NCBI GenBank assembly: GCA_022825085.1
Contig: JAJDYQ010000107.1
Location: 5,409-69,408, forward strand
Source: Gammaproteobacteria bacterium
GTDB lineage: Bacteria; Pseudomonadota; Gammaproteobacteria; JAJDYQ01
DNA: 64,000 nt
Reading direction: 5' to 3'
Part shown: positions 4,447 to 58,240 of the stretch, piece by piece
How the letters are laid out: each line of letters starts with the position of its first letter
Position numbering within the stretch: the stretch's first letter is position 1
The notes under the pieces: model-generated
Database searches by the model: none
Told to the model about the DNA's origin: nothing
What the model saw: the letters and a program-made list of their open reading frames with translations, nothing else
Position numbers and translations under genes: made by a program

Positions 4447-5538
4447 CTAAGCAGGCTTTTCCAGCAAGGCGTGATTTCTGGCATCTTTAATATCTCTGGC
4501 TATCATCTCTTTGCACATTTCTTCAACGGTAATTTCCGGAACCCAGCCCAACTCATCTCTGGCTTTGGTGGCGTCACCAAGCAGCGTATTTACCTCAGCA
4601 GGACGAAAATATTGCGAATCAATCAATACTATTTGATCACCAATCGACAGCGCCGGGGCATCATCTCCTGTAATATGCTCAACGATACCAACTTCATCCG
4701 TCCCCTCTCCCTCGAAACGCAGTGTAATGCCTAACATGGAGGCTGACATACACACAAAATCTCTTACGGTCATCTGCTTGCCCGTCGCAATAACAAGGTC
4801 CTTTGGCTGTTCCTGTTGAAGCATCATCCATTGTGTACGCACATAGTCTTTGGCATGGCCCCAGTCTCTCAGCGCATCCAACTGCCCCAGGCAAAGACAT
4901 TTTTGCAGGCCCTGCGCCACCCTGGATAAATCACGTGTAATTTTACGGGTAACAAACGTTTCACCGCGCCTTGGTGATTCATGATTAAACAAAATCCCGT
5001 TACAGGCAAAAATTCCGTATGCCTCTCTGTAATTGATCGTTATCCAGTAGGCATACAGCTTGGCAACCGCATACGGGCTTCGCGGGTAAAACGGGGTGGT
5101 TTCTTTCTGTGGAATCTCTTGAACAAGACCATAAAGCTCGGATGTTGATGCCTGATAATAGCGCACCTTGTTTGACAGGCCAAGAGTATGAACAGCCTCC
5201 AGAATTCGTAGAGCACCGAGGCCAACCATATTGGCAGTGTATTCAGGTATTTCAAAACTTATTCCCACATGGGATTGCGAGGCCAGATTATATATTTCAT
5301 CAGGCTGGACTTTTTCGATGATCCTGAGAGTATTTATACTGTCTGTCAAATCACCGTAATGCAGAAAGAAATGTTGGTTTCGTTCATGCTTATCCTGATA
5401 AATATGATTTATTCTCTCGGTATTAAAGGAGGAGAAGCGGCGCTTGACTCCATGCACCTCATATCCCTTATCCAGCAGAAATTCGGCAAGATAGGAACCG
5501 TCCTGGCCGGTGACGCCTGTAATTAATGCTTTTTTCAC
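4447..5538 (-). CDS. gmd: GDP-mannose 4,6-dehydratase
   Basis: 363 aa; [28 protein letters not shown]-terminus is canonical Gmd. Start ATG overlaps the thrS stop (ATGA). Confidence 0.92.
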
Positions 5539-7472
5539 TGAATTTGCTCCTCTATTTTGGTGCGACCATGGCTATCAACTTCCTGTACAAGCCTTTCGAT
5601 AAACACTTCAATCGGCATGCTGCCCATGTCTGTGCCATTTCTTGTGCGCACAGATACGGTTTTCTGCTCCATTTCTCTGTCACCTGCTATTAACTGAAAG
5701 GGGATGCGCTGCATACTGAGCTCGCGTATTTTTAGTCCGATCTTTTCATTTCTGAGGTCAGCCTCGGCCCTTATGCCTCGCTCGACAAGCATTGCCTGAA
5801 CCTGTCTGGCATACTCTTCGTGTTTGCTCGTGATATTGATGACGGTAACCTGTACAGGCGATAGCCAGACAGGCAGTGAGCCTGCATAATGTTCTATGAG
5901 TATCCCTATGAAGCGCTCAAAAGATCCCAGAATCGCTCTGTGCAACATGACGGGCACCTGCTTTTCACTGTTTTCATCGATATAATGCGCATCCAGCCGT
6001 CCGGGCATCGAAAAATCGACCTGCATCGTGCCACATTGCCAGACTCGACCTATGCAGTCTTTCATGGAAAACTCGATTTTCGGACCGTAAAAAGCACCCT
6101 CTCCCGATAGTTCTTCCCAAGGCAGCCCATGGTGGTCCAGCGCATCGGCCAGCGCCTTTTCTGCCCTGTCCCAGTCTGCATCGCTGCCTACCCGTTGTTC
6201 CGGGCGCGTGGAAAGCCGGTAAATTATCTCCTCAAAACCAAAGTCAAGATATACTTCGTGCAGAAAGTCTATAAAGCGTGAAACTTCTGGCTGGATCTGT
6301 TGCTCAGTACAAAAAATATGGGCGTCATCCTGAGTAAAGCCGCGCACACGCATCAGACCGTGTAATGCGCCCGAAAGCTCATTACGGTGGCATGAACCAA
6401 ATTCTGCAAGCCGCAGTGGTAAATCACGGTAGCTTTTTAGTCCCTGATTGAACACCTGTATATGACACGGGCAGTTCATGGGCTTGATGGCGAAGTTTCT
6501 GTCTTCCGATTTGACGGCAAACATGTCATCACCAAACTTGGAGGCATGCCCCGATTTTTCCCACAGCGAGTAGTCAATTATCTGTGGAGTGTTGATCTCT
6601 TTGTAACCATGGGTGTGCAGCTTCTGCCGCATATAGTTTTCAATGGTTTTATAGATTGTCCAGCCCTTGTCATGCCAGAAAACCATGCCCGGCGCCTCTT
6701 CCTGCATGTGGAAAAGGTTTTGCTGCCTGCCAATTCTACGGTGATCACGCTTTTCTGCTTCTTCCATCTGGTGCAGATGCTGCTTGAGCTGTTTTTTGTC
6801 TGCCCAGGCGGTGCCGTAAATGCGTTGCAGCATTTCATTATTGGAGTCACCGCGCCAGTAGGCCCCGGCAATCTTCATCAGCTTGTAGGCTTTCGGTAGT
6901 TTGCCTGTGCTTGGAAGGTGGGGGCCACGGCAAACATCAAACCAGTCGCCCTGACGATATATCGATATCGTCTCTCCAGCCGGTATCGCTTTAATGATCT
7001 GGACTTTGTACTCCTCACCAATTTTCTGAAATGTCCCGATCGCCTGATCACGGCTCCATTCTTCCCGTTCTATCGGCAGATTACGGCCCACGATTTCATT
7101 CATCCTGGCTTCTATCTTCTGCAAATCATCCGGAGTGAACGGCTGTTCACGCGCAAAGTCGTAGTAAAAGCCATTTTCTATCGCAGGACCTATGGTAACC
7201 TGGGTACCGGGATACAGTTCCTGAACGGCTTGGGCCATGACATGCGCCGCATCGTGGCGAATCAGCTCAAGTGCTTCCGCATTTTTGGCAGTAATGATCG
7301 ATAATTCGGCATCCTCCGTGATAAGGTAAGATGTATCCACCATCCTGTTATCGACCTTGCCCGCCAGGGCTGCTCCGGCGAGACCCGAACCAATATCCCG
7401 GGCCACCTGCATGACCGTTACCGGATGATCAAATTGACGTTGGCTGCCATCCGGCAGAGTGATGTTTGGCAT
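5535..7472 (-). CDS. thrS: Threonine--tRNA ligase
   Basis: The ORF is open to 7565, but the conserved ThrS N-terminus [14 protein letters not shown] begins at 7472. The upstream extension overlaps tRNA-Val and is not coding. Confidence 0.92.
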
Positions 7473-7526
7473 TATGTTGTCCTTTTCAGTGGCGACCCTT
7501 ACGTGAGGCCGCGTGAGTATGGGATT

Positions 7527-7602
7527 GGTAGGCACGATTGGACTCGAACCAACGACCCCCACCATGTCAAGGTGGTGCTCTAACCAGCTGAGCTACGCGC
7601 CT
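7527..7602 (-). tRNA. tRNA-Val (anticodon GAC)
   Basis: Reverse complement AGGCGCGTAGCTCAGCTGGTTAGAGCACCACCTTGACATGGTGGGGGTCGTTGGTTCGAGTCCAATCGTGCCTACCA. Cloverleaf with anticodon loop TTGACAT; near-identical to E. coli tRNA-Val2. Confidence 0.9.
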
Positions 7603-30476: not shown

Positions 30477-32030
30477 TTGAATATCATGTCATGGAATGAC
30501 TACTCCTGGATTCGCGACCCTGCTCTGGCAGGCTGGGCTCTTCGTTTACTGGCGGTGCTTTTTGCACTGTTTGTAATCGCAGCCGCAACGATATGGGGGC
30601 TTTACCGATTTCCAGACAAGATCGGTTTTATTTTACTCGTCCAGATATTGCTGCTCATTCTATGTACCACCATACTGCTGATGCTCGTCAAACGCTTTTA
30701 TCGTGAGTTGATCCAGCCCATCAGTAGCGTCCGCAGCTGGACATCACGTATGCACAAGGGCGACTATTCGGCAGAAATCACACTACCCAGCAAGGGGCAG
30801 TTCGCCGGTCTGCTGCACGATATATCGCAGATGGGGCGCTGGTATAAAAATATCAGCGTGGCAAGTGACGAAGAAATCAGCGAACAGATGCGGCAAATGG
30901 CAAGAAAAACGCGCCTGCTGGAAATTCTCTATGACATTGCAGCCAACATCAGCGTGGCACGCGATCTGAATGAATTGCTGGAACGCTTTCTACGCATTTC
31001 GGCAGAAATGACCCATGCACGGGCAGCTCTGGTTCGCCTGACAACAGCGGACGGCGACATGAAACTGATCGCTGCCGTCGGTGAGACATCCAATCAGTAC
31101 GAAAAGAGCATACCGATGGTCGATGTTATACCCGGCCAAGGCTCAAAAATTAAAAATGTTTACGTTATCTCGCCGGGAGCATCGAGAGACTTTCGCCGAT
31201 TCAGCGAATATGCCATCGATTTTGAGTGCGTGATCGTATCCCTGATCCATCAAGACGATGTCATGGGAGCCTATCAGCTACTGGTAGATCAATCTGTTTC
31301 CAATATAAGCTACGACCTGCATGAGCTGTTGACCAGCATTGGCTTTCACTTGGGTCTGGCGATCCACAAGGCACAGCTCGATGAAGAGGCACAAAAGCAA
31401 TCGATCTTTCGAGAACGACTCACTCTGGCACATGAACTGCATGACTCACTGGCCCAGAGCATAGCCAGCCTGCGCTTTCAGTGCAAAGCACTGGAGGCGA
31501 GTGTGGATGAGTCCAATCTGGACTCGGCAGCGCGAGAGGTCGCTCGATTAAGAGAAGGCGTTGACCGCGCCAACGGCGAACTGCGCGAACTGCTGGTGCA
31601 TTTTCGCGCACCGATTGACCATAGAGGACTGGTGCCAGTATTGAACGACATGCTGAAAAAATTTCAAGAAGAAAACCAGATACTGGTTTTCAGCCAGTTT
31701 CACAATGGCGAGATGAATCCGCCGGTACACATCCAGCGTCAGGTCATCCGAATTGTCCAAGAAGCCTTGGCCAATGTTAAAAAACATGCCAACGCGCGCA
31801 TTATTCGGGTACTGCTGCGTTTGTCAGATAAAGGCACATGCCGGCTACTGCTGGAAGATGACGGATGTGGCTTTACAGGAGAAATCGACCAAGGCACCTC
31901 CGGCGGCAGGCATATCGGGCTGCAAGTGATGCGGGAACGAGCGGCCTATATTGGTGCCGACCTGAACATCGAATCCGAATCTGGAGAAGGATCACGTGTT
32001 GAACTGAGCTTTCGTTGGGACGTGAAGTAG
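30477..32030 (+). CDS. Sensor histidine kinase, TM-(HAMP)-GAF-HisKA_3-HATPase architecture
   Basis: 517 aa; two N-terminal TM segments with a short loop, a GAF-like middle region, HELHDSLAQSIASLRF (HisKA_3 H-box) and a C-terminal HATPase. Confidence 0.85.
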   Translation: MNIMSWNDYSWIRDPALAGWALRLLAVLFALFVIAAATIWGLYRFPDKIGFILLVQILLLILCTTILLMLVKRFYRELIQPISSVRSWTSRMHKGDYSAEITLPSKGQFAGLLHDISQMGRWYKNISVASDEEISEQMRQMARKTRLLEILYDIAANISVARDLNELLERFLRISAEMTHARAALVRLTTADGDMKLIAAVGETSNQYEKSIPMVDVIPGQGSKIKNVYVISPGASRDFRRFSEYAIDFECVIVSLIHQDDVMGAYQLLVDQSVSNISYDLHELLTSIGFHLGLAIHKAQLDEEAQKQSIFRERLTLAHELHDSLAQSIASLRFQCKALEASVDESNLDSAAREVARLREGVDRANGELRELLVHFRAPIDHRGLVPVLNDMLKKFQEENQILVFSQFHNGEMNPPVHIQRQVIRIVQEALANVKKHANARIIRVLLRLSDKGTCRLLLEDDGCGFTGEIDQGTSGGRHIGLQVMRERAAYIGADLNIESESGEGSRVELSFRWDVK

Positions 32031-32115
32031 GCATTCTGGTATCGGTGAACAGGCAAATGAGATAAACTCTGATGCGGGCATAGTTACAGGCTGGATACCA
32101 GCCAGGAGATAAGGT

Positions 32116-32559
32116 TTGACCAGCATTTCTGATGATGCCGCACCTTTGGCCATATTATCCAATCCCGATATCAGTATCCTTTACATCGAGGATAATTCCG
32201 CCAATCTGATTCTTGTTCAAAAGGTCATTGAAAAAAAAACTGCCTTCCGCTTTTTGTCCGCAGCGGACCCTGTGTCTGGATTAGAACTGGCCATTTCCAA
32301 GCAGCCCGATCTTATATTGCTGGATATTTTTTTACCGATCATGGATGGCTATGAGGTGATGAAAAGATTCAGAGAAAACGAGCTGACGGCCAACATACCG
32401 GTTATTGCCTTAAGCGCCAATGTGATGCAGGCAGACATTCAACGAAGTATCGAGGCTGGATTTGCTGCTTATGTGCCCAAACCGATCAATATTGCCAGCT
32501 TTCTGGAACAGATTGCACGAGTGCTTGAGCATTCATTAATAGAACGCCGGACATCCTGA
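32116..32559 (+). CDS. Single-domain response regulator (CheY-like receiver), TTG start
   Basis: 147 aa; LYIEDNSANL ... DLILLDIFLPIMDGYEV ... YVPKP receiver motifs. No output domain. Confidence 0.8.
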   Translation: MTSISDDAAPLAILSNPDISILYIEDNSANLILVQKVIEKKTAFRFLSAADPVSGLELAISKQPDLILLDIFLPIMDGYEVMKRFRENELTANIPVIALSANVMQADIQRSIEAGFAAYVPKPINIASFLEQIARVLEHSLIERRTS

Positions 32560-35955: not shown

Positions 35956-36032
35956 CGGGGTGTAGCTCAGCCTGGTAGAGCACTGCCTTCGGGAGGCAGG
36001 GGGCGGAGGTTCGAATCCTCTCACCCCGACCA
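35956..36032 (+). tRNA. tRNA-Pro (anticodon CGG)
   Basis: CGGGGTGTAGCTCAGCCTGGTAGAGCACTGCCTTCGGGAGGCAGGGGGCGGAGGTTCGAATCCTCTCACCCCGACCA; anticodon loop TTCGGGA. Confidence 0.88.
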
Positions 36033-36082
36033 ATAAATTTCAACAGACCATGGATCATGTATAACGGGAAGGAGGAATTGCA

Positions 36083-36922
36083 ATGCCGGAAAGCGGCTTA
36101 TCCAGAGATATTGATGGCACACCGTATTGCTTTGAAGAATCCCGGCTACCCTTTTTGCAGGAGCTGTCAAATCGCGTTGTGGAACTGCGAAAAGCCGGAC
36201 GACTGACGCCGAAAATATTAAGCAATATAAGACGGTATTTCAAAATAAAGAACATTTATCACTCAAATGCCATTGAAGGCAATGTACTGAGCATCGACGA
36301 AACAAGGCAGGTTGTAGAGCATGGCTTGACGATTACCGGCAAGCCGCTGAAAAACCAGACAGAAGCCAAAAATCTAAAGGAAGCTCTGGATTTTCTGGAA
36401 GATCTGGCAGCACAGCCGAGGAAGCCGATTACTGCGACTAATGTGAGGCAAATTCATCGTTTTGTATTGAAAGATATCGATGATGATAACGCCGGAAAGT
36501 ACAGAAGTAACGATGTTGAGATAAGCGGTTCTGATTATAAGCCCCCGCCCCCCGAATCAGTGCCACCCCAGATGCACGATTTCGGTAACTGGCTGTCAAG
36601 CACCTCGACTGTGGATGATAATCAGGGCACTCTGGAGGCAATACTTTATGCCGCTGTCGCCCATACATGGCTGATGTATATTCATCCTTTCATTGATGGC
36701 AATGGCAGGGTTGCTCGCCTGCTCATGAACCTGATTTTGATGCGGCATGGATATCCCATAGCCATTATCGGAAAAGAGGACAGGTTGCGTTATTACGATG
36801 CGCTTGAAATTTCCCAGTATGCAGATTTATCACCATTTATTACCCTCGTAGAAGAGTGCATAAACGAAAGTCTGGAAGAATATGAAAGGTCAGTAAAGGA
36901 GCGGCAAGAGCAAAAAGAATGA
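36083..36922 (+). CDS. Fic-family protein (AMPylase/phosphocholine transferase fold); frame stays open for 80 codons past the TGA stop
   Basis: HPFIDGNGRVARLL Fic motif. Lies directly 3-prime of tRNA-Pro(CGG). See the finding on the in-frame continuation to 37165. Confidence 0.8.
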   Translation: MPESGLSRDIDGTPYCFEESRLPFLQELSNRVVELRKAGRLTPKILSNIRRYFKIKNIYHSNAIEGNVLSIDETRQVVEHGLTITGKPLKNQTEAKNLKEALDFLEDLAAQPRKPITATNVRQIHRFVLKDIDDDNAGKYRSNDVEISGSDYKPPPPESVPPQMHDFGNWLSSTSTVDDNQGTLEAILYAAVAHTWLMYIHPFIDGNGRVARLLMNLILMRHGYPIAIIGKEDRLRYYDALEISQYADLSPFITLVEECINESLEEYERSVKERQEQKE

Positions 36923-37542: not shown

Positions 37543-38418
37543 TTATATCTCGCTCAACAGCTTTTCCGTCATGGATTCTGCCTGTCGCAGATAACTGCCG
37601 CCAAACAGATTATAGTGATTAAGGATATGGTACAGGTTGTATAGCGTTTTTCTGACCGGATAACCCTCGTTCAGGGGCCAGACGCCGTTATAGGCATCAT
37701 AAAACTTTGTTCCGGGTGCGCCAAACAGTTCAGTCATAGCTATATCTGCTTCACGATCTCCGTAGTAGGTTGCCGGATCATATATAACCGGTTCGCCGTG
37801 GTCGTCAAATGACCAGTTACCTGCCCATAAATCGCCATGCAGCAGTGAGGCTTGTGGCTGGTAAGCCGAAAAGAAGCGGGGCATGGCTTCCATCAGCTCA
37901 TTTCCCCGGTCTATCAGGCGACCCCCACAACCATTTTGCCTCGCCAGCCGAAGTTGGTATCCCAGGCGTCGGTTCTGCCAGAATCTGGCCCAGTTCTTAT
38001 CCGAATTGTTCTGCTGGGGAGTTGAACCGATGGTGTTGTCGATCCTGAAACCAAATGTTTCATTCGTATGTCTGTGCATGGCTGCCAGCTTTTCGCCAAA
38101 TTTTGCGGCACTCCCCTGTCTGGTAAGGGTTATGTACTCCAGTACCAGATAGCTGTGTCCACCTGCTTCGCCGTAGCAGATGGGGCGCGGCACGTTTATT
38201 GTGCCGGTATCCGTCATTGCCCACAGGCCTGCTGCCTCAGCAATAAACATGTCCAACAGTGATGCGGCATTGGTCTTTATAAAGTAGCGACAGGCACCGC
38301 TATCGAGCCGAAAGGCGGTATTGATACTGCCGCCACTTATCGGTTGTTGTCCATCAGCCTGAAAGGGGATGCCGGTTACACGGGTGATATTTTCAGTAAT
38401 GGCCCGGATCAATTCCAT
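37543..38418 (-). CDS. Fructosamine/ketosamine-3-kinase family protein
   Basis: 291 aa; aminoglycoside-phosphotransferase-like fold with HGDLWAGN and YDPATYYGDRE motifs. Confidence 0.85.
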   Translation of the reverse strand: MELIRAITENITRVTGIPFQADGQQPISGGSINTAFRLDSGACRYFIKTNAASLLDMFIAEAAGLWAMTDTGTINVPRPICYGEAGGHSYLVLEYITLTRQGSAAKFGEKLAAMHRHTNETFGFRIDNTIGSTPQQNNSDKNWARFWQNRRLGYQLRLARQNGCGGRLIDRGNELMEAMPRFFSAYQPQASLLHGDLWAGNWSFDDHGEPVIYDPATYYGDREADIAMTELFGAPGTKFYDAYNGVWPLNEGYPVRKTLYNLYHILNHYNLFGGSYLRQAESMTEKLLSEI

Positions 38419-39047
38419 TATTTGCCGAGAATGTTCATTTCCCGGCTGAGGCGATCATGCAGTGGACTGCTCCGGGGGAAGTGTGCGAGCAGAAATTTCA
38501 TCTGATCCGCCAGCACTTGCCTGCCCTGCAGATAAACATATTCAGCATGAGTCGGGGTGAACGGGATCGCCAGAAGTTCCATGCCTGCTTCTTCCGGTGT
38601 ACGCCCGGCTTTATGGTTGTTGCAGCGCTTGCAGGCGGTGACGACATTGTTCCAGACATCCTGTCCCTGCCGGCTGATTGGTGTTACATGGTCGCGGGAG
38701 AGTAGCTTTGCCTGAAATTTGTTGCCACAGTAGAGGCACATATGGCCATCTCTCTTGAATAGTGACGAGTTGTTCAGTGGTGCCGAATAACGCCGCTGTG
38801 CCTTGTACAGGCCACCAGCATGGCCTTTGGTCGCAATAATCGAGTTCACTTCAACAATGCTGCGTCTGCCACTGGTAGCGTTTATGCCGCCATGTATTTC
38901 ATATAGCAGGGCACCGCAGGTATAGGCAATCACGTCAAGGTAGTGAAACCGAACGGCTTCCCGATAAGAAATCCATTCCAGCGGCATACCGGAGGCATCT
39001 GTCCGGAGAACTTGTTGATTCAGGCCGCTACTGGCGTTTGCTGTCAT
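38418..39047 (-). CDS. HNH endonuclease-domain protein
   Basis: 209 aa; CLYCG ... H ... N ... CKRCNNHK HNH/zinc-finger core. Its stop overlaps the start of the downstream kinase-fold gene. Confidence 0.75.
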   Translation of the reverse strand: MTANASSGLNQQVLRTDASGMPLEWISYREAVRFHYLDVIAYTCGALLYEIHGGINATSGRRSIVEVNSIIATKGHAGGLYKAQRRYSAPLNNSSLFKRDGHMCLYCGNKFQAKLLSRDHVTPISRQGQDVWNNVVTACKRCNNHKAGRTPEEAGMELLAIPFTPTHAEYVYLQGRQVLADQMKFLLAHFPRSSPLHDRLSREMNILGK

Positions 39048-39118: not shown

Positions 39119-40351
39119 TCATTTGAATTTGTGGATAGCCTCAATCAGTTCGGCAGCAGATTGAAATCGCCCATCAGGAGACTTGGATAACATTTTCTCC
39201 AGCAGAGGTTGGTATTTTTGATGCGGTGCCTGAAGTTTTGGGATTTCCGCATGTACATGCTTGTAGAACATCGCCATTGGGTTATCGGCTCGATATGGCT
39301 TTTTTCCGGTCAGCATCTGGTAATAGATGATACCCAGACTGTAAATGTCGGAACGGTGATCAACATTTTTGCCGCGTGCCTGTTCTGGACTGACATAGGA
39401 GGGAGTCCCATAAACTTCACCATGGTCGCTCAGGTCCTCTTCTATGACCATTCGGGCCAGACCAAAATCAAGAATGGCAAGGGTATCGTCTGCGCGGAAC
39501 AGTATGTTGCCGGGCTTAAGGTCTCTATGGACGATCTTTTTTCGATGTACATCATCCAACCCACTGGCTATCTGCCGCAGGTAGTCCAGTGCTTTGTCAG
39601 GTTTTATTCCTCCGCGGATGCGGCGTATCAGATTACCGCCAGAAAATCTTTCCATCACGATGAAGGCATACTCATCGGTGAATGTCTGATCGAAAATTTT
39701 GGCGACATGAATGTTTTCAATACTGGCCAGTATGTTGTATTCACGGATGAAGCGCTCAATCATGCGGTCGTCATCTATGTTATTTACATCCAGCACCTTG
39801 ACTGCCACTTCGAGGCCATCCAGAGCTCTTTCTGCCAACCAGACCCGTGACATACCGCCCCGACCGAGTTCGCGTATCAGGCGATAGCCACGCAGACCAT
39901 GGATTTTCTTTGTCAGCGTGTCATTGTCGGCGTATTGATTGGTGGCGGGTTCAGCGATGCCAGATGCGGTATTAGCATCTCGCAATCCACGGTCCGAGAA
40001 GCGTTTCATGCCTTCTGCGACCGCATTGTTCAGCGAAGATGTGGTCAACCCCTCCAAGGGCAGTATATTCGGCAAATCGGGGACGCTCCGGCTGGTGCTG
40101 AGCAGGATTATCAGAGGCAGGCTGCCATTTTCAGATTGCTCAAGCAGTTTGCGCATGGCTTCATCGGCATGGTCAAAACCGCTCAGTATTATAGCATCGG
40201 AGTTTTTGAGTTTCGGGTCGGAACCTATGTCTTCCAGATTGTATTTGTGTATGTCGGCGCCCGGCCAGCCTAAATCAAGATACTGGCTCAGGAGAAGAAA
40301 GTGCTCTTCCAATCGGTCAATGATGGCAAAATGACGTTCCATAATCAGCAT
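39119..40351 (-). CDS. Hanks-type Ser/Thr protein kinase with N-terminal pseudo-receiver-like domain
   Basis: LGRGGMSRVWLAERALDGLEVAVKVL (Gly-loop, VAVK), HRDLKPGNILF, DFGLA and GTPSYVSPE. The N-terminal ~145 aa have a receiver-like hhhD/hhhhS pattern. Confidence 0.85.
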   Translation of the reverse strand: MLIMERHFAIIDRLEEHFLLLSQYLDLGWPGADIHKYNLEDIGSDPKLKNSDAIILSGFDHADEAMRKLLEQSENGSLPLIILLSTSRSVPDLPNILPLEGLTTSSLNNAVAEGMKRFSDRGLRDANTASGIAEPATNQYADNDTLTKKIHGLRGYRLIRELGRGGMSRVWLAERALDGLEVAVKVLDVNNIDDDRMIERFIREYNILASIENIHVAKIFDQTFTDEYAFIVMERFSGGNLIRRIRGGIKPDKALDYLRQIASGLDDVHRKKIVHRDLKPGNILFRADDTLAILDFGLARMVIEEDLSDHGEVYGTPSYVSPEQARGKNVDHRSDIYSLGIIYYQMLTGKKPYRADNPMAMFYKHVHAEIPKLQAPHQKYQPLLEKMLSKSPDGRFQSAAELIEAIHKFK

Positions 40352-40362
40352 TGTTCCACAAA

Positions 40363-40390
40363 TATGGTCCCTGGGCTTTAATGGACCATA
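40363..40390. promoter_or_regulatory. Perfect 8-bp inverted repeat (TATGGTCC-N12-GGACCATA) abutting the Ser/Thr kinase start
   Basis: Located 12 nt upstream of the kinase ATG. Could form an RNA hairpin in the 5-prime UTR or a dimeric protein operator. Confidence 0.3.
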
Positions 40391-40852
40391 ATATAGTACA
40401 CGCCCCCAATCAAAGATGGTCTGTATTGGCAGAGGCTACCAGCGAACGCTCACCAACACCTGTCTTGTCCGGGTCATCAATAATAAAGTATCCGGATAAA
40501 TCATTTTTTCTTTTTTCGCAGCCTGCCATACCGACTTTGTGTTGAGACAGGCAGGTGGGTTGATTCTTTTCAGGTAACCATAAGAATAGGGACACCGTGA
40601 TAGTATCAGCTCGACCCTGGGCCTATGCGGAGACAATCAGATGACAGCTTTTGTAGATAATTATTTACTCAGTTTTCCGGCCACAGTAGCAGCTTCACAT
40701 TGTCAGAGCAGATATGGATAAATGGCAGTGGAAGGTGCCAAGAGCCGCCTTTGTGAATCTGACAAAACATTGCAGACAGTCTCGGGCAGGTTCAGGCCAC
40801 CTGAGGTATATAGCCGGGCAGCCTATAACCGGACATAGGCCCCGCGTCTGAA

Positions 40853-41131
40853 TCAACGCCCAAACAATTTGCCGATGAGGCCACCGAAAAGTCCCTTTTT
40901 TCTGGCACCTCGCTTGCTTGGGCGAGATCTCCCCATCACATTCAGGAAACGGTCACCCGCATCGTCACCAATCTCCCTGCATAGCATCTTGAATACGTAA
41001 TCCACCGAAATTCCGCGCTCAGCAAGCTCTTTGGCCTGCTCCTTAATCCACGCATCAGACGGTTTTTTCTTCATCCCATTGATAAAGCCATCAAGCAGGG
41101 TTTTTGACCACATTGTATGTTCATCAGCCAT
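40853..41131 (-). CDS. Small hypothetical protein with cationic amphipathic C-terminal tail
   Basis: 92 aa, ends KRGARKKGLFGGLIGKLFGR. Lies between the kinase and the VWA-FHA gene on the same strand. Confidence 0.5.
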   Translation of the reverse strand: MADEHTMWSKTLLDGFINGMKKKPSDAWIKEQAKELAERGISVDYVFKMLCREIGDDAGDRFLNVMGRSRPSKRGARKKGLFGGLIGKLFGR

Positions 41132-41213
41132 GAGCGAGCTCCTTAATAATTGCCAATCAGAGTAAATTTACCGGATTATGCCGGAAAATACCATGAAATG
41201 AATAGATATTTTA

Positions 41214-42683
41214 TTATTTGGATGGCAGCCGGGTACGAAACATCCGAGTAGCCTGCATATCGTTTGCCGGGGCACCTTCTGTCACAAAACGCAGGCGGAT
41301 ATCACCAATTTCTATGACATCGTCGTTCTTCAGGTCATGCTTCTTTACTTCCTGATTATTGATCAGCAAGCCATTTTTGGAACCAAGGTCTTTGATGGTG
41401 AACTGCCCCATATCATTGAGGCATATTTCAGCATGGTATCGAGATATGGCAGAGTCTGGCAAGGCAATGTCATTTTCCCGATATCGACCGATCTTTGTTG
41501 AAAGTGAACGAACAGGATAACGTCGCGTCTTTTGTTCACCATCCAAAATCTCCAGCCAGGCCGCCGCAGGGGGAGCTCCATTTTCTTCTCTGTCCACCTG
41601 AGGCAGGGGGGCGCTACCACGGGGTCTGAGACGCCATAGCAGGACGATAATGGATATGGCAAGCAGTAGGCTTAATAGCAGCAACGACCAGTACAGAGTA
41701 TCATCTTCAATCTGCCCGTTTTCCTGTACGCGCTCGATAATAACTGTGGGCGGCGGGACCGGTTCCTCGACCTTGGGCTGTATCTTGACTTTATCCGGCA
41801 GGGTGACTGGAACAGGTATCGATATCTGTCCAGATAAGGCTTGCAGAGCAATTTGTAAATGATGCCTGCCAGCAAGATTGGCAGCTATGGCATCCGAGAG
41901 ATCTATGTCATAGCTGCCAGATACATTCAGGCTATTGATTACCGCATGGATATCTTCTTGTTGCAAGCCATAGTATGCCGGTTTTGCCGCGATGTAGGTG
42001 CCGCCCGTATCTTCAGATAAGCGTCGCAGGGTTTGCAGGGCAACACTGTTGGATATGTTGTCAGCATAGCCGATCGTATGCAGGCTGATGTCATTTTGTA
42101 TGGCCGACTGCACTACATCACGGTGAAAATAGGCATAGTCCTCCGCCAATCCGTCGGACATCATCAATATCGATTTAACGTCCGCTGCAACCTGCCTGAG
42201 AATATTAATGGCCCCAAGGGTGTTCCTGTAGAGCTCGGTTGTTTTGCCCTTTGCGCGAATCGATCTGGCTGCCTGTATAATTTCTTCCCTGCTGCTGCCC
42301 GGCGGGGCCAGCAGATGCAGCTCTGTATCAAATCGGGCAATACCTGTCAGGGTGTGGCCCGGCAGCCGGTTGACAATTTCTTCGACGTGAGCAGCCTGAC
42401 TTCGAAGTGAGTCGGCTCGACGAGGATCACTGGAATCGATCAATATCAACAGAGCCGACACAAGCTGCCGCTCACTTTCCTGCAATGACAGGTCAACATC
42501 GTCCAGACTTGCCCTCGGTTGCGGGTAAGGACCCGGGGGTGTGCGCAGCATGACCCACAGGTGATCGCTGCTCCCCTGTTTGTAAAGCACCGCTGTCCCA
42601 TCACGCACAATCATGCTGGCATCAAGAAGCCCGGCACGCAATATGAGCACCACCAGCAGGCAGATTTGATATATTTGTCGCAT
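41214..42683 (-). CDS. Signal peptide-VWA (periplasmic)-TM-FHA (cytoplasmic) protein
   Basis: 489 aa; N-terminal signal-like hydrophobic segment; VWA-like region (ILIDSSDP ... LMMSDG); TM LYWSLLLLSLLLAISIIVLLW; C-terminal FHA (GRYRENDIALPDSAISRYHAEI ... DLGSKNGLLINNQEV). Confidence 0.8.
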   Translation of the reverse strand: MRQIYQICLLVVLILRAGLLDASMIVRDGTAVLYKQGSSDHLWVMLRTPPGPYPQPRASLDDVDLSLQESERQLVSALLILIDSSDPRRADSLRSQAAHVEEIVNRLPGHTLTGIARFDTELHLLAPPGSSREEIIQAARSIRAKGKTTELYRNTLGAINILRQVAADVKSILMMSDGLAEDYAYFHRDVVQSAIQNDISLHTIGYADNISNSVALQTLRRLSEDTGGTYIAAKPAYYGLQQEDIHAVINSLNVSGSYDIDLSDAIAANLAGRHHLQIALQALSGQISIPVPVTLPDKVKIQPKVEEPVPPPTVIIERVQENGQIEDDTLYWSLLLLSLLLAISIIVLLWRLRPRGSAPLPQVDREENGAPPAAAWLEILDGEQKTRRYPVRSLSTKIGRYRENDIALPDSAISRYHAEICLNDMGQFTIKDLGSKNGLLINNQEVKKHDLKNDDVIEIGDIRLRFVTEGAPANDMQATRMFRTRLPSK

Positions 42684-42962
42684 ACTTCACAAATTATAGA
42701 TCAAAATACTGATACTTGGGCTGGATCAGGCATTCTTACATAGGACTACCATAGTCAGCCTTGAAGCGGTTCTAGGTTTAATCAGAGCCTTTCTTAGTCT
42801 GGCAGCTTGCAGGAAAGGACAAAACTCAGAAAGCCGGTATCAGTTATGAGACACCGACAACAGGACGCAATGGTTACACCGGCACTGTAGATGTGGCATG
42901 GTAACCAAGGGAGGAAGCACCGCGGGAAAGGTACCGACCCGACGAGAAAAAATGATACTGTA

Positions 42963-43328
42963 TCAGCAACCGAGCGCTCTGTCGATTTTCGCGAACATCA
43001 TCGCCTTATCAAACGGCTTTACTATGTATTCAACCGCACCCTGACGCTGCCCATAAACAATATCTGCTTCCTGATCTTTCGATGAAACGATAATGACAGG
43101 AATATTTGAAGTTTCAGGGTCATGGTTCAGTTTGCGCATGGCCTGAAAACCATTCATGCCGGGCATAATCAGATCCATCAAAACAAGGTCCGGTTTTTTC
43201 GTACGGACCTTTTTGATACCGCTTTCCCCATCTCTTGCGAAAGAGACGCTATGCCCTCCCTGTTGTACTATCTTTGCGATTATCTGCGAACAGGTCGGGG
43301 AATCATCAATAATCAGTATGGATGCCAT
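42963..43328 (-). CDS. Single-domain response regulator (CheY-like)
   Basis: 121 aa; ILIIDDSPT ... DLVLMDLIMPGMNGF ... YIVKPF. Confidence 0.85.
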   Translation of the reverse strand: MASILIIDDSPTCSQIIAKIVQQGGHSVSFARDGESGIKKVRTKKPDLVLMDLIMPGMNGFQAMRKLNHDPETSNIPVIIVSSKDQEADIVYGQRQGAVEYIVKPFDKAMMFAKIDRALGC

Positions 43329-43365
43329 AATTTTATACCTTGAATACGAATGTATTGATAGTTAA

Positions 43366-43701
43366 TCAGGTAATAATTTCCGTGAGCGAAGGATCGCCTG
43401 AAGTATCAATATGCAGCTCTCTTATATCTGGAATTCGCCAGGCAATATAAGCAGCCATGGCCACCTTCAGGGAAAGATTGTCGCTTTCAAGAGCAAGCAT
43501 CAGGCGCTCAGCAACAATCTGACTGCGCTGAAGCAGATCCGGTTCATGGACATATTCAGGCCCCATGCGCCATCCTCGGTCCATGTCTCTGTCCATAGTG
43601 GCAAAAAAGCCCATGCCCTGTTTAATATCGGCATGATCAACGTATATCGTGTACTGATCGCCTTCTATAAACACATCGAATTCAATACTATCGTTTGACA
43701 T
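43366..43701 (-). CDS. Hypothetical protein
   Basis: 111 aa ORF immediately upstream of the CheY-like gene on the same strand. No family recognised. Confidence 0.5.
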   Translation of the reverse strand: MSNDSIEFDVFIEGDQYTIYVDHADIKQGMGFFATMDRDMDRGWRMGPEYVHEPDLLQRSQIVAERLMLALESDNLSLKVAMAAYIAWRIPDIRELHIDTSGDPSLTEIIT

Positions 43702-44207: not shown

Positions 44208-44390
44208 TCAGTTCATGACATGCTCAAGCCTTTGCGGGGCATAGCCACCTGGATCAAAGCTGTAACGAACCGGTTCAGAGATGAACTCGATGCGATTACA
44301 TGCCGGGCATTGATGCCACTCCAGAAAGCTATCCTGATGATTTTCCCTCTTTATCAAACGCATATGGGAGTAACAACGCGTGCACTGCAT
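44208..44390 (-). CDS. Small zinc-ribbon (CxxC...CxxC) hypothetical protein downstream of nrdB
   Basis: 60 aa; MQCTRCYSH ... QCPACN. Starts 60 nt after the nrdB stop on the same strand. Confidence 0.4.
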   Translation of the reverse strand: MQCTRCYSHMRLIKRENHQDSFLEWHQCPACNRIEFISEPVRYSFDPGGYAPQRLEHVMN

Positions 44391-54829: not shown

Positions 54830-55360
54830 ATGGCTTTACTGAACATACTGCATTTTCCTGACAAACGCCTGCGGTGCAAGGCGAAGCCAGTCGAAGAAAT
54901 CAACGACAGCACCCGCCAACTGGTGGAAGATATGTTTGAGACCATGTATGACGCCCCCGGAATAGGTCTTGCCGCCATTCAGGTGAATATTCCACAGCGA
55001 GTCATTGTTGTCGATGTGAGCGGGGACAGATCCCGGCCACTGGCACTGATCAACCCTGAAGTCACCGTTCTTGAAGGCATCGAAAGTATGGATGAAGGCT
55101 GCCTGTCCGTGCCGGGTGTATTCGAGAAGGTAGAAAGAGCAGACAAAATTACGGTCAAGGCACTAAACCCGCACGGTGAAGAGTTTGTAATGGATGCGGA
55201 TGGTTTACTTGCGGTGTGTATTCAACATGAGATTGATCATCTGGATGGCAAGCTGTTTATTGATTATCTTTCTGAATTAAAGCGCCAGAGGATCCGCAAG
55301 AAGCTGGGCAAACAGGGCAGGAGACAGTCCGGTTTTGAAAATCGCAGGCAGGTAATTTAG
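54830..55360 (+). CDS. def: Peptide deformylase
   Basis: 176 aa; [17 protein letters not shown] and HEIDHLDG motifs. Confidence 0.95.
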
Positions 55361-55384: not shown

Positions 55385-56350
55385 ATGCCTTCATCGCCTC
55401 TGGAGATAGTATTTGCCGGCACTCCTGACTTTGCTGTTCCAACTTTACAGGCCCTGATAGAAAGCCATCACAGAGTGATTGCAGCTTACACCCAACCGGA
55501 CCGGCTGGCAGGCCGGGGGAGAAAAATGCTGTCGTCTCCGGTTAAGCGGTTATCTGTTCAGCAGCAGATTAAAATTTATCAGCCTGAGAGCCTGCGCACA
55601 GAAGAAGCCAGAGAACATCTGCGGGCGCTGTGCCCGGATGTCATGGTCGTTGTGGCTTATGGACAGATATTACCGCCGGATATATTGCAGATACCAAAGT
55701 ATGGCTGCCTCAATGTTCACGCATCGCTGCTCCCGCGCTGGCGTGGCGCTGCCCCGATCCAGCGGGCGATACTCGCAGGAGACCGAGAAACGGGGATTGC
55801 CGTAATGCAGATGGATGAAGGGCTCGATACCGGCAATATATTGAGTCGTGTCAGAACCCCCATCCACGATAAAGATAACGGTCAGACACTGCACGACAGA
55901 TTGGCTGCAATGGGAGCAGCGGCCCTGATAAAAGCACTGGATGACATGGCTGGAGGCTCACTGCCACAGGCGATGCCGCAGAATGATAATGATGCCTGTT
56001 ACGCGGCAAAACTGACCAAAGCCGAAGCAGCCATAGACTGGTCTCGACCAACCGGAGAGATTGTGCGGGCGATAAGAGGTTTTAATCCCTGGCCGGTGGC
56101 CCATACGGAATTTGACGGCGAACCATTGCGCATCTGGCAGGCATCCGATGTAAGCCGCACCACACATGTCGCGGCGGGGGAGGTGATCTCGATCAATCAC
56201 AACATCACTGTCGCAACCGGCAATGGATGTCTGGAACTTCTGGAAGTTCAACCGGCCGGCGGAACACGCATGTCCGCACAGGCGTTTCTAAACTCCCGCA
56301 GAGAGATCATTGAACCCGGCTATATTTTTGGTCAATCGCAGAAAAAATAA
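55385..56350 (+). CDS. fmt: Methionyl-tRNA formyltransferase
   Basis: LEIVFAGTPDFAVPTL N-terminus, HASLLPRWRGAAPIQ. ORF is open from 55373. Confidence 0.93.
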   Translation: MPSSPLEIVFAGTPDFAVPTLQALIESHHRVIAAYTQPDRLAGRGRKMLSSPVKRLSVQQQIKIYQPESLRTEEAREHLRALCPDVMVVVAYGQILPPDILQIPKYGCLNVHASLLPRWRGAAPIQRAILAGDRETGIAVMQMDEGLDTGNILSRVRTPIHDKDNGQTLHDRLAAMGAAALIKALDDMAGGSLPQAMPQNDNDACYAAKLTKAEAAIDWSRPTGEIVRAIRGFNPWPVAHTEFDGEPLRIWQASDVSRTTHVAAGEVISINHNITVATGNGCLELLEVQPAGGTRMSAQAFLNSRREIIEPGYIFGQSQKK

Positions 56351-57647
56351 AAGCCCACCGGGAATAAATGTCCGTGAGCAGGCGGTGCGTGTGCTTGTGC
56401 GTATCATTGATGGGCACCAGACCCTGGACAACACCCTGGAGCGGCATCTGATCCGCGTAGAACCCATTGACCGCCCGTTACTGCAAGTCCTGTGCTATGG
56501 CGTTATGCGCTGGTATCCGCAACTCAGGGAATGGCTGGCACAGCTTTCGGACAAACCTGCTGGGCAACTAAAGCCGGAAGTCCGGGTATTAATACTGCTG
56601 GGAATTTACCAGCTGCGATATACACATATACCCCCACATGCGGCCATTCATGCCACCGTCGAGTGCGCCGCCTCTTTTTTGCAAGCCTCCCGTGCCGGCG
56701 GTTTCATCAATGCAATACTCCGGGAGTATCAGCGGTGCGACAAGCAGGGCTCACTAACAGATAACGAAGCGACCCGTTATGCACATCAGAGCTGGATGCT
56801 GGACATGATACGAATAGACTGGCCGGAAGACTGGCAGAGAGTGGTGCAGAATAATAATCAACAGGCACCGATGGTGCTGCGCCTGGATGTTGCCAACATG
56901 TCAGTCAGGAAATACCTTGAATTGCTGGACAAAACTGGAATTGAGGCCAATGTTCATCAATATGTACCCACAGCGATAGTTCTGAAAAAAGCTGTTGATG
57001 TAGAGCAGCTTCCCGGCTTCGAACAGGGTCTGGTCTCCGTTCAGGATGCAGCCGCCCAGCTGGCAGCACCGCTGCTGGAAGCGACACCGCAACATCGGGT
57101 ACTTGATGCCTGCGCTGCCCCCGGAGGGAAAACGGCGCATATTCTGCAACAGGTCAGGACTGCAAAACTGGTGGCGCTGGACTCCAATCCACAACGGCTG
57201 AAAAAACTTGAACAACTATTTGAGCGCATTCACCAGAACGCGGAAATTGTTACCGGCGATGCTTCCCAACCTGAGCACTGGTGGGATGGCAGACATTTCG
57301 ACCGAATCCTGCTTGATGTCCCTTGCAGTGCCAGCGGAGTCATACGTCGCCACCCTGACATTAAAACTCGTTCACCGCATGCCGTACAGAAAATAGCAAA
57401 ACGCCAGGCACGGATACTGGATGCTGTCTGGGGCCTCCTTGCCAAGGGAGGCAGAATGGTTTACGTCACCTGCTCCGTGTTCAAACTGGAAAATCAATAT
57501 CAAATAGAATGCTTTCTGCAACGCCAAAGTGATGCTATGACAAAACCGATTGAAAGCGAATGGGGTCAGGGACAAATCGGACGCCAGATACTACCAGGTG
57601 AAGGCGACATGGATGGATTTTATTTTGCGATACTGGAAAAAAGGTGA
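56310..57647 (+). CDS. rsmB: 16S rRNA (cytosine967-C5)-methyltransferase RsmB
   Basis: 445 aa; NusB-like N-domain and SAM-MTase core (DACAAPGGKT, DVPCSASGVIRRHPDIK, TCSV). Start overlaps the fmt 3-prime end and is uncertain. Confidence 0.88.
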   Translation: MNPAIFLVNRRKNKSPPGINVREQAVRVLVRIIDGHQTLDNTLERHLIRVEPIDRPLLQVLCYGVMRWYPQLREWLAQLSDKPAGQLKPEVRVLILLGIYQLRYTHIPPHAAIHATVECAASFLQASRAGGFINAILREYQRCDKQGSLTDNEATRYAHQSWMLDMIRIDWPEDWQRVVQNNNQQAPMVLRLDVANMSVRKYLELLDKTGIEANVHQYVPTAIVLKKAVDVEQLPGFEQGLVSVQDAAAQLAAPLLEATPQHRVLDACAAPGGKTAHILQQVRTAKLVALDSNPQRLKKLEQLFERIHQNAEIVTGDASQPEHWWDGRHFDRILLDVPCSASGVIRRHPDIKTRSPHAVQKIAKRQARILDAVWGLLAKGGRMVYVTCSVFKLENQYQIECFLQRQSDAMTKPIESEWGQGQIGRQILPGEGDMDGFYFAILEKR

Positions 57648-58240
57648 GGCACCTCACCGAATCGACAATATGCTTTTTGCTGCTTGCAGGCCAGCTTCTG
57701 CCGGGCATGGCCTGTGCAGACAACGAAACCTTTGCCAAGTATGATATTCAGGTAGAGCAGGAACAGGCACACTTAACTTTAAGGGGCGATATTCATTTTA
57801 ATTTCAGTCGGGTAGCCCTTGAAGCACTGGATAATGGTCTCCCCATTACGTTGATCACCGAAATTGAACTGGTGGAGCCCGGTGCATGGCCCTGGAGCCG
57901 TGCCATCTGGGAAAAATCATTCACCCATGAAATTCAGTACCACGCCCTGAGTCAACAGTACCTGGTCAAAAGCATTCAGGCCGGCTTCCCTAAAGCCTAT
58001 CTGACGCTCAGTTCGGCACTAAAGGCATTAGGCAGGATTGAAAACCTTGAAGTCCGCAAACCGGAAAAGTCAGATCCAGACAAAAACCATATCATACAGG
58101 TACGCACAGGACTGGACAGCGAGAAACTGCCGATTCCGCTCAGGCCACTGACCTATTTGTCCAATAGCTGGCGTCTGCGAGGCAACTGGCAGAAGATTTA
58201 CTGGCAGAATACTGAAAGGGAAGATGCAGATTTACGGTAA
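57644..58240 (+). CDS. DUF4390-domain protein (conserved rsmB/ntrY neighbour)
   Basis: 198 aa with a signal-like N-terminus. Same position as DUF4390 genes in fmt-rsmB-DUF4390-ntrY loci. Confidence 0.65.
   Translation: MRHLTESTICFLLLAGQLLPGMACADNETFAKYDIQVEQEQAHLTLRGDIHFNFSRVALEALDNGLPITLITEIELVEPGAWPWSRAIWEKSFTHEIQYHALSQQYLVKSIQAGFPKAYLTLSSALKALGRIENLEVRKPEKSDPDKNHIIQVRTGLDSEKLPIPLRPLTYLSNSWRLRGNWQKIYWQNTEREDADLR

Follow-up and report, generated by a model that had tools for sequence, protein, structure and literature searches.

The locus described here raises the question of whether five neighbouring genes, among them one for a Hanks-type serine/threonine kinase (STK) and one for a protein in which a VWA domain and an FHA domain are joined through a transmembrane (TM) helix, form a phospho-threonine signalling system, and which of the five belong to it. 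They lie in a 64-kb stretch (hereafter the window) of contig JAJDYQ010000107.1 from an uncultured gammaproteobacterium (assembly GCA_022825085.1), and are transcribed from the minus strand in the order p111, REC (a stand-alone CheY-like receiver), VWA-TM-FHA (VWA-FHA for short), p92 and STK, in which they are named throughout. A sequence-only reading had proposed these five co-oriented open reading frames (ORFs), all of which are present exactly where it placed them and all on the minus strand, and its Pkinase, FHA, VWA and Response_reg assignments were each recovered by Pfam searches. With moderate confidence, we propose that VWA-TM-FHA, p92 and the STK, which bears an N-terminal pseudo-receiver, constitute a three-gene module for phospho-threonine signalling at the inner membrane. 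Signalling by STKs and FHA proteins in Gram-negative bacteria is known mainly from control of the type VI secretion system (T6SS) and from a few developmental systems, in which the FHA protein is soluble and the extracellular sensor resides on the kinase. Here the phospho-threonine reader is itself a transmembrane protein, with an adhesion-type ectodomain.

Searches of the VWA-TM-FHA protein against Pfam revealed an FHA domain at aa 396–460 (PF00498, E 8e-21) and a VWA domain at aa 78–228 (PF00092, E 6e-8; 33.5 bits against a cut-off of 23.8 bits). Hydropathy analysis detected an N-terminal hydrophobic segment at aa 7–25, a putative signal or anchor helix, and one TM segment at about aa 331–352; among the five proteins only this one contains hydrophobic segments, and STK, p92, REC and p111 have no TM helix. 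Since the TM segment is preceded by an acidic EDD and followed by a basic WRLRPR, the positive-inside rule applied to this hydropathy profile would place the VWA domain in the periplasm and the FHA domain in the cytoplasm. Residue conservation was assessed in alignment A1, which comprises 37 VWA-TM-FHA proteins at 29–71% identity. All residues of the FHA domain that bind phospho-threonine (G399, R400, S414, R415, H417 and N437) are invariant, as are the MIDAS-like residues of the VWA domain (D83, S85, T148/T149 and D177) and the S176 and G178 that flank D177. The C-terminal tail is also marked by conservation, with T479 and P487 invariant and T484 nearly invariant, and this threonine-bearing tail is a candidate phospho-acceptor and FHA ligand. 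Conservation is concentrated in the VWA and FHA domains, the former being the best-conserved part of the ectodomain (40–82% identity), whereas the flanking β-strands, the linker and the juxtamembrane segment evolve fast.

An exact-sequence look-up of the VWA-FHA protein of the window returned no record, and relatives were used instead. The AF2 model of the full protein has a pLDDT of 85 overall and above 90 over aa 76–232, and it arranges the chain as β-strands (22–69), VWA domain (76–232), further β-strands (256–295), a disordered proline-rich linker, the TM helix (328–352), the FHA domain (375–468) and a disordered tail, whose pLDDT is below 50 at aa 471–484. Foldseek searches with the ectodomain matched a Catenulispora VWA protein (4fx5), ArnB in the ArnAB complex (8s05) and an ArnB paralogue (5a8j) over about 320 columns, as well as BatB and many other VWA structures; in the model, the ectodomain is a VWA domain inserted in a split β-sandwich, a layout of the ArnB/YfbK type. 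The FHA domain matched GarA/OdhI, both by fold (TM-score about 0.9) and in a sequence search of the PDB (E 3e-13, 37% identity). Among its fold matches was also the FHA domain of Bdellovibrio DgcB (6hc1), which binds the phosphorylated N-terminal peptide of its own protein.

The kinase domain of the STK spans aa 156–399 (PF00069, E 7e-49; 167 bits against a cut-off of 31.7 bits), and its catalytic residues K185, E204, HRDLKPGN (275–282) and DFG (295–297) are invariant in alignment A2; judged from its primary structure, the kinase is soluble and catalytically intact. Its N-terminus gave no PF00072 match in Pfam, and direct hhalign comparison of the N-terminus shared by the STKs of the window clade with REC was not significant (probability 1.9%). 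The clade profile did match the N-termini of REC–Pkinase fusion proteins (hhalign 98%, E 1.8e-13), and these in turn matched canonical receivers (hhalign 99.4%), so that the term pseudo-receiver holds through transitive homology where the direct comparison fails. The sequence-only reading had placed a pseudo-receiver on the kinase, which these intermediates and the residues lost from the domain bear out: S57 stands in place of the acceptor Asp, L99 in place of the conserved Lys and D12-R13 in place of the acidic DD pair, and α4 is shortened. Given these substitutions, canonical Asp phosphorylation of the domain is no longer possible. The nearest relatives of the STK beyond the clade are proteins of about 400 aa that combine PF00072 and PF00069, at 36–40% identity over 96–98% of the length, and distant members of the family stand alone in housekeeping contexts (e.g., L086; L numbers denote retrieved loci).

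The p92 gene is preceded by an AAGGAG ribosome-binding site 7 nt upstream, and its product consists of a conserved start (TMWSxTLL), a helical core, a variable basic linker and a C-terminal amphipathic helix (GLLxKLFxK), with a net charge of +9 in the basic linker and tail. An HMMER search of 1.8 billion representative proteins yielded only eight relatives. The terminal helix is kept in all of them but the shortest (P0281, 73 aa) and the linker varies; the amphipathic basic tail noticed in the first reading of this DNA is accordingly a feature that persists in remote homologues. We take the terminal helix to resemble the membrane-targeting helix of MinD, and from this resemblance a peripheral-membrane location is inferred, making p92 a probable small cytoplasmic adaptor at the membrane periphery. 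No match to p92 or p111 was found in Pfam, NCBIfam or PADLOC, and relaxing the Pfam threshold to E ≤5 likewise gave nothing credible.

Comparison of related loci showed that three of the five genes remain together. The p92 gene lies directly downstream of VWA-FHA in all nine loci of the clade that have VWA-FHA (the window, L002, L004–L008, L085 and L087), and the pseudo-receiver STK follows within 1.3 kb beyond p92 in all eight of these whose contig reaches that far; in two of them (L085 and L087) two tandem STKs follow p92. Six further metagenome contigs (8888, 18030, 9598, 6641, 6185 and 25610 bp) appear to pair VWA-FHA with the kinase, as judged from equal sizes. VWA-FHA, p92 and STK stay together across relatives that are only about 40% identical. 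The other two genes are less constant. REC adjoins p111 in L002, L004–L006 and L084, and in L005 the two genes share 4 nt of overlapping reading frame; L087 has no REC, and in L088 p111 occurs alone, beside a NUDIX gene. Because REC and p111 are inconstant and the other three consistently linked, the defensible unit is VWA-FHA, p92 and the kinase. The five-gene module of the sequence-only reading stands for these three genes and holds only loosely for REC and p111, and the neighbourhood comparison that it called for gave a similarly divided result: the three genes are co-conserved, with REC missing in L087, p111 alone in L088 and VWA-FHA itself missing in L084. We regard REC and p111 as a separate, loosely attached and possibly translationally coupled pair, not an obligate part of the unit; the pair may communicate with the pseudo-receiver. 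REC itself is a complete receiver (PF00072, E 7e-28) with the full catalytic set D8, D9, D52, S82 and K104, and p111, correctly listed as a hypothetical protein of 111 aa, is a real, conserved and unannotated protein with an invariant acidic loop (MDxDMDxGxRMGPE).

In relatives, the cluster is interrupted by genes for PhoX, AhpC/redoxin and an adhesin/TPR-sulfotransferase pair. Two long intergenic gaps in the window, 501 bp between p92 and STK (40352..40852) and 279 bp between REC and VWA-FHA (42684..42962), match the earlier estimates of about 500 and 280 bp and are the sites at which relatives hold the AhpC/redoxin gene and an opposite-strand PhoX gene; tblastn searches of the window for remnants of AhpC/redoxin and PhoX detected neither. 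More than one transcription unit, as had been suggested, is supported. A scan for promoter and terminator consensus sites found no more of them than in shuffled sequence and is therefore uninformative on the transcription units.

About 104 protein clusters have the VWA-TM-FHA architecture. A genome scan with one genome per species gave 138 pattern-matched stretches, 126 of which were confirmed by tblastn, and the best 80 of these were retrieved as distinct loci. All of these best 80 of 126 come from uncultured organisms (one uncultured isolate record, otherwise metagenome-assembled genomes), and nearly every one bears the label Gammaproteobacteria; the hosts of the family are mostly of sulfur-oxidising or symbiont type, and no cultured host is known. 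No family-level model or annotation covers these proteins, and two orphan proteins accompany them as partners; the literature searches made here found no description of a VWA-TM-FHA protein or its partners.

Three types of gene context were distinguished. In 48 of the 63 loci with at least 3 kb of upstream sequence (Type 1; e.g., L010:7842-9751, L012:7775-9707 and L073:8090-9985), VWA-FHA is the last gene of a co-directional set, convergent with tilS-accA-dnaE, that begins with a MotA/ExbB-like protein of about 250 aa (MotA_ExbB, PF01618, E 9e-11) and continues with p197 (about 197 aa, single TM) and p172 (about 172 aa, two TM); all three partners are present in 36 loci. Neither p197 nor p172 gave a credible Pfam match at E ≤5, and this four-gene membrane module appears to be undescribed. 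YkuD and DUF302 genes often precede the set. Searches of the 64-kb window for homologues of the MotA-like protein, p197, p172, YkuD and DUF302 found none. In Type 2, a kinase with Pkinase and cNMP_binding domains lies upstream of VWA-FHA on the same strand, either adjacent (L019, L022 and L075) or separated from it by ABC-transporter genes (L024, L028, L060 and L047). Type 3 is that of the window clade (the nine loci named above), with the order nrdAB, p60, p111, REC, VWA-FHA, p92 and pseudo-receiver STK. A p92-family HMM run against all fetched loci matched only loci of the window clade, which places p92 outside the Type 1 and Type 2 contexts.

No locus among the 63 carries both a kinase and a gene of the MotA module (48 with MotA versus 10 with a kinase), and this mutual exclusion suggests replacement rather than co-operation. 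The kinase adjacency extends to lineages whose VWA-FHA is about 33% identical, whose flanking genes differ (tilS instead of HNH/frk) and whose kinase has a second architecture. In a rough neighbour-joining tree, the kinase-linked VWA-FHA proteins group near the root; the linkage may thus have a single origin and have persisted despite deep divergence and rearrangement. The sequence-only reading had put forward the FHA protein as a likely substrate or scaffold for the adjacent kinase; a partnership of the two is made plausible by this recurrence of kinase adjacency, seen both among divergent relatives and beside a kinase of another architecture. The Pkinase–cNMP_binding fusion was also seen beside VWA-FHA or in its place (L084:5258-6538; L087:8545-9891, where it is divergent to VWA-FHA; Type 2, e.g., L019:1467-2762), and its recurrence hints at a cyclic-nucleotide input into the same pathway.

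Reading the products of Hanks kinases is the dedicated role of FHA domains. In the three-gene module that we propose, the kinase would phosphorylate threonines on the cytoplasmic part of VWA-FHA, with the tail (T479 and T484) or the juxtamembrane linker as the best candidates, and these phospho-threonine sites would then be bound by the FHA domain of the same molecule (in cis) or of another (in trans), on the model of GarA/OdhI, Bdellovibrio DgcB and ArnB/ArnA. Capture of a ligand or protein by the periplasmic VWA domain could thereby be coupled to a change in the oligomeric or conformational state of the protein and in the recruitment of partners at the membrane. On the inner leaflet, p92 may act as adaptor or output, and the pseudo-receiver may serve as a regulatory or docking domain of the kinase.

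Several observations weigh against this proposal. What it has as direct results are the architecture, the conserved residues, the hydropathy-based topology and the conserved adjacency, and whatever goes further is inference. One relative (L084) has p111, REC, p92 and STK in an otherwise syntenic locus that lacks VWA-FHA, which means that, at this locus at least, p92 and STK can be maintained in its absence. The clade is narrow and its whole region from nrdAB to the kinase is syntenic, so that the adjacency is partly a matter of simple descent. Most family members, the 48 loci behind the MotA/ExbB-like module, lack a neighbouring kinase, so that the kinase cannot be the universal partner of the family. 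Within the proteins, the MIDAS motif (DxSxS...T...D) is imperfect, with Pro87 at the third position of DxSxS and a nearly invariant Asp86 beside it, and the AF2 model leaves the tail undocked from the FHA domain, an outcome that can also be read as speaking neither for nor against the tail hypothesis. The window kinase has Ser309 in place of the usual activation-loop Thr (LTxHG), so that docking of the FHA domain on that loop is unlikely in this clade. The scanned ORFs of the window include no phosphatase gene.

Other explanations compete with the three-gene module. VWA-TM-FHA could primarily be a structural or scaffolding subunit of an envelope machine that is powered by a proton channel of the MotA/ExbB type and encoded elsewhere in the genome, the kinase being unrelated or merely modulating it. 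The position of VWA-FHA at the end of the MotA_ExbB/p197/p172 set in most loci speaks for such a machine, as do the matches of its FHA domain to GltG (NCBIfam) and Yop-YscD_cpl (Pfam), which liken it to the FHA-bearing scaffolds GltG and YscD of the inner membrane; we nevertheless consider this unlikely for the window, where no homologue of MotA, p197 or p172 exists, given also that kinase-linked and MotA-linked loci exclude each other. Somewhat less likely still is the absence of any functional unit, the genes being neighbours by descent in a conserved stretch that runs from nrdAB to fructosamine kinase, each acting independently. The synteny of the nrdA-to-kinase stretch in L001/L005, L004, L006, L002, L084 and L087, the insertion of unrelated genes and the dispensability of REC, p111 and VWA-FHA, each in some relative, are consistent with this, and the two long gaps argue against a single operon, with the promoter and terminator scan at the level of shuffled sequence. 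Descent alone, however, sits poorly with the invariant adjacency of VWA-FHA and p92 wherever VWA-FHA is present, with a kinase adjacency that survives rearrangement and recurs with a second kinase architecture and other flanking genes, and with the established dedication of FHA domains to Hanks-kinase products.

The remaining two explanations invoke known systems. An anti-phage defence locus, composed of a kinase like PD-T4-6, the HNH nuclease next to it and the Fic protein not far away, was suggested by matches of the kinase domain to the PADLOC models PD-T4-6 (E 3e-76) and mad6, by a weak match of the HNH protein to PtuB and by the match of the Fic protein to SoFic (E 9e-37). The PD-T4-6 models, though, span only the generic Hanks kinase domain (aa 154–409), VWA-FHA, p92 and p111 have no PADLOC match, the HNH protein is 84–99% conserved and its gene overlaps that of fructosamine kinase by one base, and the locus keeps a stable, syntenic place among housekeeping genes, not in a variable island; we judge the defence reading highly improbable and reject it on context. 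The domain types STK, VWA and FHA also recur in the regulatory pathway of the H1-T6SS of P. aeruginosa, and the locus might be a PpkA/PppA/Fha1-like threonine phosphorylation pathway with shuffled domains. Against this, the kinase here is soluble and it is the FHA protein that bears the VWA domain; no T6SS gene was found in the 64 kb, and no PP2C, by Pfam scans that covered the ORFs of at least 150 aa other than 54830..55360, 56310..57647 and 57644..58240, together with a minority of the smaller ones. Both absences agree with what had been stated from the sequence, and none of more than 80 related loci has T6SS neighbours. Membership in a T6SS pathway has next to no probability and is effectively refuted by gene context, kinase topology and the phosphatase result.

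We view the locus as a variation on STK–FHA signalling built from known parts, with two orphan partner families and an unexpected alternative context beside MotA/ExbB. A broader reading, to which we give low credence, is that VWA-TM-FHA proteins are an unrecognised class of bacterial single-pass receptor-scaffolds, a fused, membrane-spanning counterpart of ArnB/ArnA that couples capture by the periplasmic VWA domain to the reading of phospho-threonine in the cytoplasm, and whose input or energising partner has been swapped between a proton-driven MotA/ExbB module with two new membrane proteins and Hanks kinases with p92. Were this so, the family would offer a natural experiment on how transmembrane signalling of the motor type relates to that of the kinase type; the either/or split between MotA/ExbB and kinase in any case yields a testable hypothesis on how VWA-TM-FHA is driven.

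The coordinates of the cluster, its domains and the neighbouring features are collected in Table 1. Upstream of the cluster lie nrdA, nrdB and a protein of 60 aa with two CxxC motifs (CxxC...CxxC), and downstream of it an HNH protein and then fructosamine kinase. Beyond the cluster, the 64 kb consists of ordinary chromosomal genes, including nrdAB, topA, dprA, fmt, ntrY, glnB-amtB, tatABC, thrS, uvrB, infC-rpmI-rplT, pheST, thiDE, hemL and ppa.

Table 1. Positions of the signalling genes, their domains and nearby features in the 64-kb window.
Feature	Coordinates	Strand	Description
p111	43366..43701	-	111 aa; conserved; no Pfam/NCBIfam annotation
REC, stand-alone CheY-like receiver	42963..43328	-	121 aa; Response_reg
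VWA-TM-FHA protein	41214..42683	-	489 aa; Pfam VWA and FHA
VWA domain	41988..42461	-	aa ~75-232; predicted periplasmic
TM helix, single	41628..41702	-	aa ~328-352; hydropathy score 2.66; modelled helix 328-352
FHA domain, predicted cytoplasmic	41280..41561	-	aa ~375-468
C-terminal tail, predicted disordered	41217..41273	-	aa 471-489; T479 and P487 invariant, T484 nearly so
p92	40853..41131	-	92 aa; no Pfam/NCBIfam annotation
STK, Hanks-type Ser/Thr kinase with N-terminal pseudo-receiver	39119..40351	-	410 aa; Pkinase
Pseudo-receiver of STK	39977..40351	-	aa ~1-125; aligned with REC-Pkinase fusions
60-aa CxxC...CxxC ORF	44208..44390	-	zinc-ribbon-like; directly after nrdB
HNH_5 protein and fructosamine kinase	37543..39047	-	HNH_5 protein of 209 aa
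tRNA-Pro(CGG) and Fic-domain protein	35956..36922	+	Fic-domain protein of 279 aa at 36083..36922
Histidine kinase and receiver-like ORF	30477..32559	+	HisKA_3/HATPase_c, 517 aa; receiver-like ORF of 147 aa (ILYIEDN...)
thrS and tRNA-Val(GAC)	5535..7602	-	longest thrS ORF starts at 7565; tRNA at 7526..7602

The 60-aa ORF is 72–97% conserved at the same position in L001, L002, L004, L006 and L084, and an ORF of 57 aa takes its position in L087; the 60-aa ORF is probably a companion of the ribonucleotide reductase genes and not of the signalling genes. The HNH_5 gene and the start of the fructosamine-kinase gene have one base in common, and at 84–99% identity its product is more conserved in relatives than the signalling proteins, which is unusual for a stand-alone HNH nuclease. 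The Fic-domain protein directly follows tRNA-Pro(CGG) in a segment of lower GC content (0.458); together with its match to the SoFic anti-phage model, this segment may represent a small integrated defence islet. The 517-aa histidine kinase, which is followed by the receiver-like ORF, is the nearest histidine kinase to the orphan REC, and nothing connects the two. The longest thrS ORF overlaps tRNA-Val(GAC) on the same strand; since the TGS domain begins at aa 34, the true start codon of thrS probably lies further downstream.

Comparison with known systems placed the locus closest to an archaeal one. The sequence-only reading had likened it to the PpkA/Fha1 pathway of type VI secretion. In the PpkA/PppA/Fha1 pathway of the P. 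aeruginosa H1-T6SS, a periplasmic VWA domain and an FHA protein work together with a Hanks kinase across the inner membrane. PpkA, Fha1 and the von Willebrand domain are mentioned in PMC3224232. In that system the VWA domain is part of the membrane-spanning kinase, Fha1 is soluble, and PP2C and T6SS genes are adjacent, none of which applies here; the analogy is weak, and the archaeal ArnA/ArnB/ArnC, ArnD module is closer in both structure and organisation. BatA and BatB share the membrane-anchored VWA domain (BatB structures 3ibs and 4jdu matched the VWA domain in Foldseek), and mycobacterial FhaB/FipA the combination of TM and FHA (the NCBIfam model FhaB_Rv0019c matched the FHA domain at E 1e-11, below the family cut-off). 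Each represents one half only, neither combining VWA with FHA, and their respective contexts, the MoxR/Bat operon and the PknA/B-PstP division cluster, are absent here.

The closest solved relatives of the FHA domain are the actinobacterial regulators GarA and OdhI, substrates of PknB/PknG, in which, as here, a short flexible threonine-bearing extension adjoins the FHA domain. In GarA and OdhI, the phosphorylated extension binds the FHA domain of the same protein (structures 2kfu and 2kb3). They are small soluble regulators of TCA-cycle enzymes with an N-terminal phospho-motif, whereas here the FHA domain is on a membrane protein and the candidate threonine tail is C-terminal. The window STK is homologous to REC–Pkinase fusions over nearly its full length, and its N-terminal domain to their receivers. 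Compared with these, the pseudo-receiver of the window clade lacks the acceptor Asp, the second residue of the acidic pair and the conserved Lys, has a shorter α4 and is invisible to Pfam; pseudo-receivers without catalytic residues are a recognised class (PMC12632262).

The Sulfolobus module of ArnA (ZnF-FHA), ArnB (vWA) and the kinases ArnC and ArnD resembles the locus in that an FHA domain, a vWA domain and Hanks kinases are encoded together. ArnB consists of a vWA domain inserted in a split β-sandwich (PMC12852372), a layout that matches the modelled ectodomain (Foldseek, 8s05 at E 1e-11 over 322 columns; 5a8j at E 1e-9), and its phosphorylated Thr-rich C-terminal region is bound by the FHA domain of ArnA under the control of two Hanks kinases (PMC5007285, PMC12852372). 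Sequence identity is 12–14%, and the zinc finger and the ArnB_C helical bundle of the Arn module are absent from the VWA-TM-FHA model. The Arn proteins are separate, soluble, cytoplasmic regulators of the archaellum, whereas here VWA and FHA are fused across the membrane of a bacterial host. If confirmed, the family would represent a new receptor architecture in bacterial Ser/Thr signalling and would extend the ArnA/ArnB (Sec23/24-like) theme from archaea to bacteria.

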